A DNA stretch of 64,000 bases from Escherichia coli (GCF_050920415.1 NZ_CP169309.1); one strand, 5' to 3'. Shown: positions 16,565 to 18,763, counted from the stretch's first letter. The notes: generated by a model not told the origin, from the sequence alone. Program-made: numbers and translations.

Positions 16565-17368
16565 ATGTTTTCTACAAACTTAATACAGAGTGATTATGGT
16601 AATTTAAATATTAAAAACCTTGCCTTTAACTCTTTTAAAGAAAGGCTGCAGTCTACCATGACAGCACTCACTTTCTTCATATCAACGGGTCAATGTGCCT
16701 GCGATGAAATAGCAGAATCAAACTTCAATTATATGATTACCTATATGTCTAACATTAACTATGATGCCTCAAAGCCAGGAGCGCCAGCACTTAGTTTTGA
16801 TACATATCTGCAGGACAATGTTAAATATAGAGTGATAATTAATAATCTTTATGGTAGTGAAATTAGGATAAGAGGTATTAATGAGAATTTTGTTGGGATG
16901 GATTTTACCTGTGAATTCCGACCAGAAAAAATGACCAATTTGATCAATATAAAAAACAGGTTGGTTATTCAGTATTTAAGAACGATATACTATGAACAAA
17001 ATTATATACATCCTGTTGGGAGCATTTTTGCTGCGATTCAAAAAAATGAGAGTCTCCTAAAGTTTCCTTCGGTAATATCAATGCTTAATGTCAATCTTCT
17101 TTTTAATCCACTGAATCTTCCGGGAATGGGAAGTGGTGTGCTTGAAGAGATTATGAGCATTTCAGATAGTTCACTTAGAAAACGTCTTGGGTATGAGGTT
17201 TTAAGCTTCTCGCTACAAGCACATTCATTGAGTCAGGAATGTATTGATAAGTTAGCCATTTTTTTCGCTGACGATCTGTTTAAATATGAGTCAGTATGCA
17301 TCGCCGCGATGGAACATTTAAAAAGTAAGGCAACGGCCCCTATACAAAACGGACCGTTGCCAGCATAA
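16565..17368 (+). CDS. ydjO: uncharacterized protein YdjO (AT-rich orphan gene)
   Basis: 267-aa ORF in conspicuously AT-rich DNA with about 285-bp AT-rich upstream region; no domain recognisable by eye. Confidence 0.75.
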   Translation: MFSTNLIQSDYGNLNIKNLAFNSFKERLQSTMTALTFFISTGQCACDEIAESNFNYMITYMSNINYDASKPGAPALSFDTYLQDNVKYRVIINNLYGSEIRIRGINENFVGMDFTCEFRPEKMTNLINIKNRLVIQYLRTIYYEQNYIHPVGSIFAAIQKNESLLKFPSVISMLNVNLLFNPLNLPGMGSGVLEEIMSISDSSLRKRLGYEVLSFSLQAHSLSQECIDKLAIFFADDLFKYESVCIAAMEHLKSKATAPIQNGPLPA

Positions 17369-17371
17369 GAA

Positions 17372-18763
17372 TTAACGGTGTGCCAGTTCGGCGTCGTCTT
17401 CGCTATCCAGAATGGCTTTATCGGTTTGCTTCAGCCACTGGCTGGTCAGCGTGCCAGCGGTCATCGAGCCACTAACGTTTAGCGCCGTACGGCCCATGTC
17501 GATAAGCGGTTCAACGGAGATTAACAATGCCACCAGCGTTACAGGCAGGCCCATCGCAGGCAGCACAATCAGTGCGGCGAAAGTTGCGCCACCACCGACA
17601 CCGGCAACGCCTGCGGAACTAACGGTAACAATACCGACCAGCGTCGCAATCCACATCGGGTCCAGCGGGTTAATGCCAACCGTAGGCGCAACCATCACCG
17701 CCAGCATTGCCGGATACAAACCGGCACAGCCGTTCTGACCAATGGTCGCACCGAAAGAGGCGGCGAAACTGGCGATGGATTCAGGAACACCGAGTCGACG
17801 CGTTTGTGCTTCCACATTAAGCGGGATAGACGCAGCACTGGAACGGCTGGTAAAGGCAAACGTCAGTACTGGCCATACCTTACGGAAGTACTTCAGCGGG
17901 CTCACGCCATTAATGCCCAGCAGAAGGCCATGCACTGTAAACATAATCAGAAGACCGAGGTAGGACGCGACAACGAAACTTCCCAGTTTGATGATGTCTT
18001 GCAGGTTAGAACCTGCAACCACTTTGGTCATCAGCGCCAGAACGCCGTAAGGGGTCAGCTGCATGACCAGGCGAACCAGTTTCATCACCCAGCTTTGCAG
18101 GGTATCGATAGCGGTTAAGACGCGTTCACCTTTCGGCGCATCATCCTTCAGCAGCTTCAGCGCAGCTACGCCGAGGAATGCGGCAAAAATTACCACGCTG
18201 ATAATTGACGTCGGATTGGCTCCGGTCAGATCGGCAAACGGGTTTTTCGGGATAAAGGACAAGATCAGCTGCGGAACGCTCAGGTCAGAGACTTTACCAA
18301 CATAGTTACTTTCGATGGCGTTCAAACGTGCAGTTTCTGCACCACCCTGAACCAGACCTTCAGCCGTCAAACCAAACAGGTTGGTGACCAGCACACCGAC
18401 CAGCGCCGCAATCAGCGTGGTAAACAAAAGCGTTCCGATGGTCAGAAAACTGATTTTGCCTAACTGTGATGCGTTATGCAGACGGGCAACCGCGCTCAGA
18501 ATAGAGGCGAAGACTAACGGCATAACGATCATTTGCAGCAGTTGAACATAGCCGTTACCAACGATGTTAAACCACTGTACAGAATCTTTAAGTACCTGGC
18601 TGTCAGAACCATAAATGGTATGCAGGGCGAGGCCAAAAACCACACCCATCACCAGACCCACCAGCACTTTTTTCGCCAGACTCCACTGTTTATGGCGGGT
18701 CTGAGCCAGCGCAAACAGCAGTACAACGAACACCACGATGTTCGCAATTAATGGAAAGTTCAT
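17372..18763 (-). CDS. tcyP: L-cystine transporter TcyP (dicarboxylate/amino acid:cation symporter family)
   Basis: 463-aa polytopic membrane ORF; synteny (ydjN position). Confidence 0.9.

Follow-up and report, generated by a model that had tools for sequence, protein, structure and literature searches.

In Escherichia coli, the convergent genes ydjO and tcyP (ydjN) end 3 bp apart, probably as the result of an insertion of ydjO that left tcyP to end at a hairpin embedded in the ydjO codons, rather than as a regulatory device. The RNA end itself has been mapped in K-12, where the tcyP RNA 3′ end lies at the hairpin and its U-run inside ydjO, on a sequence identical to that of the window, the 64,000-nucleotide stretch of E. 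coli DNA (NZ_CP169309.1) analyzed here. The arrangement is of a known kind, a terminator embedded in the 3′ codons of a convergent neighbor. New points are the replacement history of the junction, its two E. coli forms, and an apparent downgrade in terminator strength.

Geometry of the ydjO/tcyP junction

The distance of 3 bp between the two stop codons, reported in an earlier note on this DNA, is correct to the base as judged by the reading frames and the sequence (ccagcaTAAgaaTTAacggt on the plus strand, 17360–17379; Table 1). TcyP, a cystine/sulfocysteine:cation symporter, matches PF00375 (E = 4.9e-107) and CedA matches PF10729 in Pfam. In NZ_CP169399.1, which is 99.9% identical to the window over 16300–17800, the coding sequences of cedA, ydjO, and tcyP fall on identical window coordinates, and a K-12 derivative is about 94.8% identical over the same range. 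Away from the locus, K-12 and the window differ by strain-specific insertions and deletions.

The 3-bp junction is the same in K-12 and recurs, together with an identical hairpin, in an allele encoding a YdjO of only 79% identity; in E. albertii, the stop of a ydjO-like reading frame lies 1 bp from the tcyP stop. Such spacing is ordinary. Three of the seven convergent pairs between 1 and 49 kb of the window overlap or lie at most 3 bp apart, namely ydjO/tcyP, ves/cho (41-bp overlap), and selO/hemP (39875/39879), which has a 3-bp gap as well, while the remaining four show gaps of 40–56 bp. In this local sample of seven pairs, the ydjO/tcyP distance is not statistically remarkable.

Table 1. Features at the cedA–ydjO–tcyP locus (window coordinates)
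Feature	Position	Strand	Description and basis
cedA CDS	16014..16277	+	PF10729; ancestral convergent partner of tcyP
AT-rich ydjO-carrying DNA	16258..17368	.	About 1.1 kb; from composition and comparison with ydjO-less alleles
Hairpin after cedA stop	16285..16311	+	GTACCTCCCGG...CCGGGAGTTAC; inverted repeat I8; left end of ydjO-carrying DNA
AT-rich region upstream of ydjO	16300..16564	+	27–32% GC; promoter island in K-12
ydjO CDS	16565..17368	+	267 codons plus TAA; stop 17366–17368; reading frame and annotation
U-rich tail UUACUUUUU	17320..17328	-	Flagged by terminator scan; holds the K-12 Term-seq end
tcyP 3′UTR hairpin	17361..17329	-	GGCAACGGUCC (17361–17351), 11-nt loop, GGGCCGUUGCC (17339–17329)
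Spacer GAA	17369..17371	.	3 bp between ydjO and tcyP stops; right-hand junction of ydjO-carrying DNA
tcyP (ydjN) CDS	17372..18763	-	463 aa; stop TAA (TTA on +) 17372–17374; reading frame and RefSeq annotation

The tcyP transcript ends at a hairpin inside ydjO

Starting 10 nt after its stop codon, the tcyP strand carries a hairpin followed by the U-run UUACUUUUU, both of which lie antisense to the final 14 codons of ydjO. The GC-rich stem of 11 bp spans codons 255–266 of 267 and continues on the tcyP strand into UUACUUUUUAA. With a folding energy of −22.4 kcal/mol (z = −4.4; 0 of 200 shuffled sequences are as stable), the element presents the stable GC-rich stem-loop of an intrinsic terminator, and it was recovered as I11 in an inverted-repeat search. 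The U-run is interrupted, with 7 U in 9 positions, and the d'Aubenton-Carafa d-score in the tcyP direction is borderline in the window (−3.3; T-score 2.84). The corresponding hairpin scores +4.6 in the strain W allele and −38.5 in E. albertii, and the ancestral terminators described below reach +31 to +46 in the tcyP direction. A terminator scan flagged four sites where 4.4 are expected from shuffled sequence; the promoter and terminator scan is thus not enriched and carries no weight on its own. An Rfam scan of 15800–19000 returned no family at E up to 1.

On the ydjO strand, the same palindrome folds less stably (−16.4 kcal/mol); it is followed by AGCAUAAGAA (tail AGCAUAAGAAUUAACGG) and has no U-run, and its d-score is −70.9. 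The design of a bidirectional terminator, an A-tract 5′ and a U-tract 3′ of one stem, is absent from this hairpin, and the element acts one way only, for tcyP. Past the ydjO stop, the plus strand (17369–17480) shows no significant fold (z = −0.27), and therefore no ydjO terminator is located there.

The in vivo RNA 3′ end within the U-tract comes from published data on K-12 and not on the strain of the window. Adams et al (2021; PMC7815308, Supplementary file 1, sheet “M63 0.4”) list a 3′ end at MG1655 position 1812373 (+) with 1167 mean reads, classified as “primary” for tcyP and “antisense” for ydjO, in the context TAATTCTTATGCTGGCAACGGTCCGTTTTGTATAGGGGCCGTTGCCTTAC[T]TTTTAAATGT. Judged from adjacent rows, this table gives 50 nt, the end nucleotide, and 10 nt; the 61 nt match the window minus strand 17374–17314 exactly. 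The K-12 end, dominant for tcyP, consequently corresponds to window position 17324, the fifth nucleotide after the stem. The tcyP 3′UTR is thus 48 nt long; as the ydjO frame runs through the hairpin, this 3′UTR is antisense and complementary to the final 45 nt of the gene, its stop codon included. In this one study of K-12, the end appears only in the minimal-medium sheet, and none of the three Term-seq conditions reveals a ydjO-sense 3′ end or a 3′ end antisense to tcyP (PMC7815308). The TERMITe and SMRT-Cappable-seq supplements contain no entry for tcyP, ydjN, or ydjO.

The earlier note had argued that the gap leaves no room for terminators, so that either the two transcripts overlap as mutual 3′ antisense or termination occurs inside the partner coding sequence. 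Indeed, 3 bp accommodate no terminator, and the tcyP terminator sits just beyond, within ydjO. Termination inside the partner is borne out for tcyP by the hairpin, the U-run, and the Term-seq end. The mutual overlap is not supported: The published mapping in K-12 places the tcyP end inside ydjO and contains no ydjO end reaching tcyP, leaving an overlap of 45 nt in one direction.

On its own strand, ydjO is terminated by Rho. The data set obtained with bicyclomycin (BCM) in LB (Supplementary file 2, PMC7815308) lists a Rho termination region within ydjO, sense strand, at 1812645, about 316 nt before the ydjO stop; ydjO-sense reads drop from 83 to 10 in untreated cells and from 80 to 42 with BCM (Rho score 4.36). 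No Rho region is listed past tcyP on its own strand in the same BCM table, which represents LB, where tcyP is low.

Origin of the junction and retention of the hairpin

The DNA carrying ydjO has 28–38% GC, compared to about 52% in its flanks, and ydjO itself has 32.5% GC at third codon positions. The left boundary of this segment is approximate and falls within the final ~6 codons of cedA. By its AT-richness and restricted distribution, the segment resembles horizontally acquired DNA; we found no convincing terminal direct or inverted repeats around it and no integrase or transposase, ydjO being its sole open reading frame. YdjO belongs to no Pfam family and has no relatives outside E. coli among 5.8 billion proteins; a HMMER scan of 1.84 billion representatives returned only fragments and one relative of 27% identity on a short Logan contig. 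Intact ydjO alleles show a dN/dS of 0.17–0.20 versus 0.03–0.05 for tcyP, indicating a real but weakly constrained orphan gene.

Upstream of ydjO, the cedA–ydjO intergenic region is a promoter island in K-12 (PMC3661553), and H-NS is listed in the row of the same region (PMC3946193). A candidate −10 element, AATAAT, is located at 16536–16541; the matching K-12 sequence, ATGACT-N16-AATAAT, is found 25 nt in front of ydjO. K-12 transcribes ydjO weakly, and the gene is essentially silent and dispensable. It does not occur in 21% of E. coli genomes, and some of the others have it deleted or carry it as a pseudogene, while tcyP remains intact.

Comparison of TcyP loci, one genome per species, indicates what preceded ydjO. 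Among the 80 loci returned, cedA converges on tcyP in 66 loci of Enterobacteriaceae. The spacer between the two genes measures 31–142 bp in 57 of these 66 (median over all 66, 63 bp), and most of the 57 spacers hold a bidirectional terminator in which a GC stem is flanked by an A-run and a T-run. None of the 60+ non-Escherichia loci contains ydjO. Within Escherichia, the gene is lacking in APEC O1:K1:H7 and two other genomes, whose spacer of 45–47 bp carries AAAACGCCTGTC...GACAGGCGTTTTTT; ancestral and B2-type spacers both display the A-tract, stem, and U-tract of a bidirectional terminator. Moreover, CedA ends in QENEVEE in the ydjO-less alleles, as in the outgroups, and in QEGEVTE in the ydjO-containing alleles. 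At the other end, the similarity of 1161 ydjO-less genomes to the window begins at 17365–17371, and AGAATTAACGG, at the tcyP stop, is the sequence shared with the B2 allele where similarity resumes. From this allele comparison and the resumption of similarity at the tcyP stop, it follows that a segment of ~1.1 kb most likely replaced the entire spacer. Thus, AT-rich DNA carrying ydjO, found in Escherichia only, appears to have taken the place of the ancestral cedA–tcyP terminator spacer. The hairpin after the cedA stop occurs only in ydjO-containing alleles and has no U-run (d-score −30.7); its function as a terminator is doubtful.

Both forms of the junction are common in E. coli. The hairpin region is present in 4297 complete genomes, in all of them at a minimum of 95% identity, and 1124 of 5426 genomes, including ATCC 11775 and ST131, have the short spacer; together, the two forms account for 5421 of the 5426.

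By comparison of alleles, the hairpin is better kept than ydjO. It persists where ydjO is frameshifted (an O157:H7 strain), where the gene has an internal stop (strain W), and where it ends seven codons early by a TGA created in the hairpin loop itself (strain 0H25). It also persists in Escherichia sp. MOD1-EC7003, where ~890 bp of ydjO were deleted between AGATCGT microhomologies, and beside tcyP in PK5074, in which an IS1 rearrangement removed ydjO. In E. albertii, where the ydjO-like reading frame encodes a protein of about 34% identity to YdjO over the available part, a homologous hairpin is found (GCGACGGCUCG...CGGGCCGUUGC). Across eight alleles including E. albertii, pairing is preserved at 98.9% of stem positions: Four stem pairs vary, only between wobble and Watson–Crick; the 3′ arm shows no change, and all remaining variants lie in the loop. 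Every E. coli allele that was compared has the same U-run. These eight alleles contain no compensatory double substitutions in the stem, and the preserved pairing is thus suggestive and does not prove covariation.

Formation of the tcyP end and comparison with known systems

Taken together, we propose the following history. In the ancestor, tcyP and cedA would have converged on a short spacer, mostly with one bidirectional intrinsic terminator. In the Escherichia lineage, ~1.1 kb of AT-rich DNA with ydjO presumably took the place of this spacer, its right edge coming to lie at the tcyP stop, which would account for the 3-bp gap. The tcyP transcript now ends at the GC-rich hairpin and UUACUUUUU, 13–52 nt past its stop codon, where the inserted DNA has its right end, and the ydjO frame crosses this hairpin on the opposite strand, reaching its first stop 3 bp from tcyP. 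The most likely origin of the tcyP end is weak intrinsic termination at the hairpin with its U-run. A probable backstop is Rho termination, assisted by H-NS, in the untranslated ydjO-antisense RNA, which has more C than G (48 versus 29 in the first 200 nt of read-through; overall ratio 1.18). In K-12, ydjO transcripts mostly end by Rho within their own reading frame.

The strongest competing explanation assigns the leading role to Rho, which would stop tcyP RNA in the H-NS-bound ydjO antisense region, with exonucleases trimming the RNA back to a protective hairpin. The intrinsic scores, borderline in the window (−3.3) and poor in E. albertii (−38), the excess of C over G in the read-through RNA, and the position of the mapped end, just 5 nt beyond the stem, are compatible with such trimming, and Rho-terminated RNAs are typically trimmed back by exonucleases (Adams et al, PMC7815308). 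Further, a Rho region antisense to selO in K-12, at the other 3-bp pair, hemP/selO, shows that junctions of this kind do use the Rho route, and ydjO and ydjN signals co-varied in an RNA-seq experiment whose methods are silent on strand specificity. However, the BCM table lists no Rho region beyond tcyP on the tcyP strand (in LB, with tcyP low), 7 of the 9 positions of UUACUUUUU are still U, and the score of the strain W allele is above zero. Pure protection would, moreover, not need a U-run that is invariant in E. coli, and for this reason weak intrinsic termination is favored over Rho with trimming, which we regard as unlikely though considerably better placed than the explanations that follow. 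The intrinsic and Rho routes may also operate in series.

Far less probable is a coupling of the two genes, as the earlier note had considered for the cystine transporter and the orphan gene, in which both would be transcribed over the 3′ end of the partner and antisense pairing or collision of RNA polymerases would link their expression. SEnd-seq has reportedly uncovered bidirectional termination at convergent pairs, for which a collision model is said to apply. The 3 bp between the stops would suit this model, as would a hairpin that can fold in the RNA of either gene (−22.4 and −16.4 kcal/mol) and might pause polymerases arriving from both directions. Additionally, one RNA-seq study in serum (TruSeq mRNA-seq, strand specificity unmentioned) recorded a decrease of at least 2-fold for ydjN as well as for ydjO, together with the CysB regulon. 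This is the lone hint of coupling, a claim that is otherwise unsupported; the fall of ydjO could simply be tcyP read-through counted as ydjO, and the observation leaves room for such read-through to be substantial. Against the model, the three Term-seq conditions contain neither a ydjO-sense end nor an end antisense to tcyP, the mapped overlap is only 45 nt, and in K-12 ydjO, which has an H-NS listing, is cut short by Rho within its reading frame. As tcyP alone extends into its partner in the K-12 Term-seq data, the arrangement differs from an excludon, in which both transcripts do so. With a one-way element and a weakly transcribed, Rho-ended ydjO, two-way overlap and coupling are unlikely under the tested conditions, the more so because ydjO is essentially silent and dispensable; its absence from 21% of E. 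coli and its decay elsewhere beside an intact tcyP likewise speak against coupling. Finally, a chance palindrome in the tail of ydjO with a diffuse tcyP 3′ end and no function would fit the unenriched scan and the lack of an Rfam match, but the sharp Term-seq peak exactly at the hairpin U-run, the z-score of the fold, and the pairing kept through ydjO deletions, across alleles, and into E. albertii leave it with a negligible likelihood.

Under the favored combination of spacer replacement and weak intrinsic termination, a tight tail-to-tail junction needs no exotic termination, since a terminator can sit in the last codons of the neighbor. A young orphan gene could thereby be inserted between convergent genes, the housekeeping neighbor keeping a defined RNA end. 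The exchange of a strong bidirectional terminator for a borderline one-way element further opens the speculative and rather improbable prospect that E. coli has two forms of tcyP 3′-end formation, with tcyP leaking antisense into ydjO in ~79% of genomes. The tcyP gene is CysB-dependent and induced in minimal medium; if the leakage were real, ydjO silencing and possibly tcyP mRNA stability would be tied to sulfur status via CysB-induced tcyP, and the tight terminator of the ancestor would be retained in ST131 and ATCC 11775, which have the short form of the spacer. In unstranded RNA-seq, reads assigned to ydjO may derive from tcyP. Moreover, about 21% of the complete E. coli genomes, ST131 and the type strain among them, lack ydjO, which undercuts the proposal of this gene as a universal E. 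coli qPCR marker.

Among known arrangements, the selO/hemP pair shares the identical 3-bp gap between stops. It differs in that K-12 has a Rho region antisense to selO, on the hemP strand, and no mapped hairpin end. The H-NS/Rho-silenced genes of “promoter islands” resemble ydjO in its low GC content (28–38%), the H-NS listing, the Rho region within the reading frame, the patchy distribution, and the frequent pseudogenes. In contrast to them, ydjO has no mobile-element signature or identifiable donor, and its dN/dS of about 0.18 points to a degree of constraint on the protein where the allele is intact.

The bidirectional terminators of convergent pairs, exemplified by the ancestral tcyP–cedA terminator, correspond to the ydjO-embedded hairpin in their tail-to-tail position and in their role for tcyP. 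The ancestral element, however, places an A-run and a T-run round one stem in a spacer of its own (31–142 bp in 57/66 loci), whereas the embedded hairpin is unrelated in sequence, lacks a U-run toward ydjO (d = −71), and lies inside a coding sequence. A further counterpart is found in intrinsic terminators within the 3′ coding sequence of a convergent neighbor. Compared to these, the tcyP element has an interrupted U-run and a borderline classical score, but it shares with them the stem-loop, the U-tail, the in vivo RNA end, and the antisense position.

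Rho termination region and promoter-like pair at the tcyP start

In K-12 cells grown in LB, the data obtained with the Rho inhibitor bicyclomycin (BCM) place a Rho termination region at the extreme start of the tcyP open reading frame, downstream of which the reads rise from 32 to 324 with BCM (Adams et al, 2021; PMC7815308, Supplementary file 2). Together, this region and the rise in reads suggest that, in rich medium, tcyP may be under the control of Rho, which would end its transcripts prematurely. Upstream of tcyP, the promoter-like pair ATGACT-N16-AATAAT is found in both the window and K-12. 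K-12 carries a second copy 25 nt upstream of ydjO, which is an entry in a genomic SELEX paper, and the ydjO copy in the window reads ATTGCT in place of ATGACT.

Besides ydjO/tcyP, the window contains two further very tight convergent junctions, selO/hemP and ves/cho; a Rho termination region lies antisense to selO (ydiU) in the same K-12 data (PMC7815308). The ShET2/EspL2-family effector gene of the window is probably accessory.

Coordinates of features in the window and in comparison loci (L-numbers)
Feature	Sequence	Position	Strand	Remarks
tcyP-start Rho region	window	~18720		44 nt into tcyP; K-12 coordinate 1810978
ATGACT-N16-AATAAT	window	18782-18809	-
ATGACT-N16-AATAAT	L002	1715-1742	+
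selO/hemP junction	window	39875-39879		convergent; 3 bp between stops
ves/cho junction	window	5498-5538		convergent; 41 bp overlap
ShET2/EspL2-family type III effector toxin gene	window	24695-26593	-	between yniD and thrS
Buttiauxella tcyP-cedA spacer	L049/L052/L054	5393-6290		~860-900 bp; encodes 228-aa Sel1/TPR protein
Siccibacter tcyP-cedA spacer	L073	5393-6297		905 bp; encodes 120-aa HI1420-type antitoxin-like helix-turn-helix protein
Frames on 2-kb contig	L088	52-270; 622-1521		50% GC
ydjO early stop	L086 (strain 0H25)	1541-1543		created within hairpin loop
Other broken ydjO alleles	L085 (O157:H7); L087 (strain W)
ydjO-less locus	L001	2962-3007

The tcyP-cedA spacer and a distant YdjO relative

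Outside Escherichia, sequence appears to have been inserted repeatedly into the spacer between tcyP and cedA, which encodes a protein in Buttiauxella and Siccibacter; in four more genera (L022, L038, L077, and L082) it spans 250-370 bp. The sole distant relative of YdjO, 27% identical over its full length, is encoded on L088, a Logan contig (SRR33321306). There, it is preceded by a CedA-like frame of just 29% identity, much more diverged than every enterobacterial CedA, and no tcyP is recognisable on this contig.

Disruption and absence of ydjO

In nature, ydjO is frequently disrupted, whether through frameshifting, through an internal stop, or through a new stop in the loop of the tcyP 3′UTR hairpin that ends the frame early. 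Truncated YdjO forms big clusters in the protein database; one of these, of a 165-aa form, comprises 2273 sequences. A 2024 paper put the gene forward as a qPCR marker conserved in E. coli/Shigella (PMC11057252), yet it is wholly absent from 1124 of the 5426 complete E. coli genomes in our collection, the type strain ATCC 11775 and ST131 being among those devoid of it.
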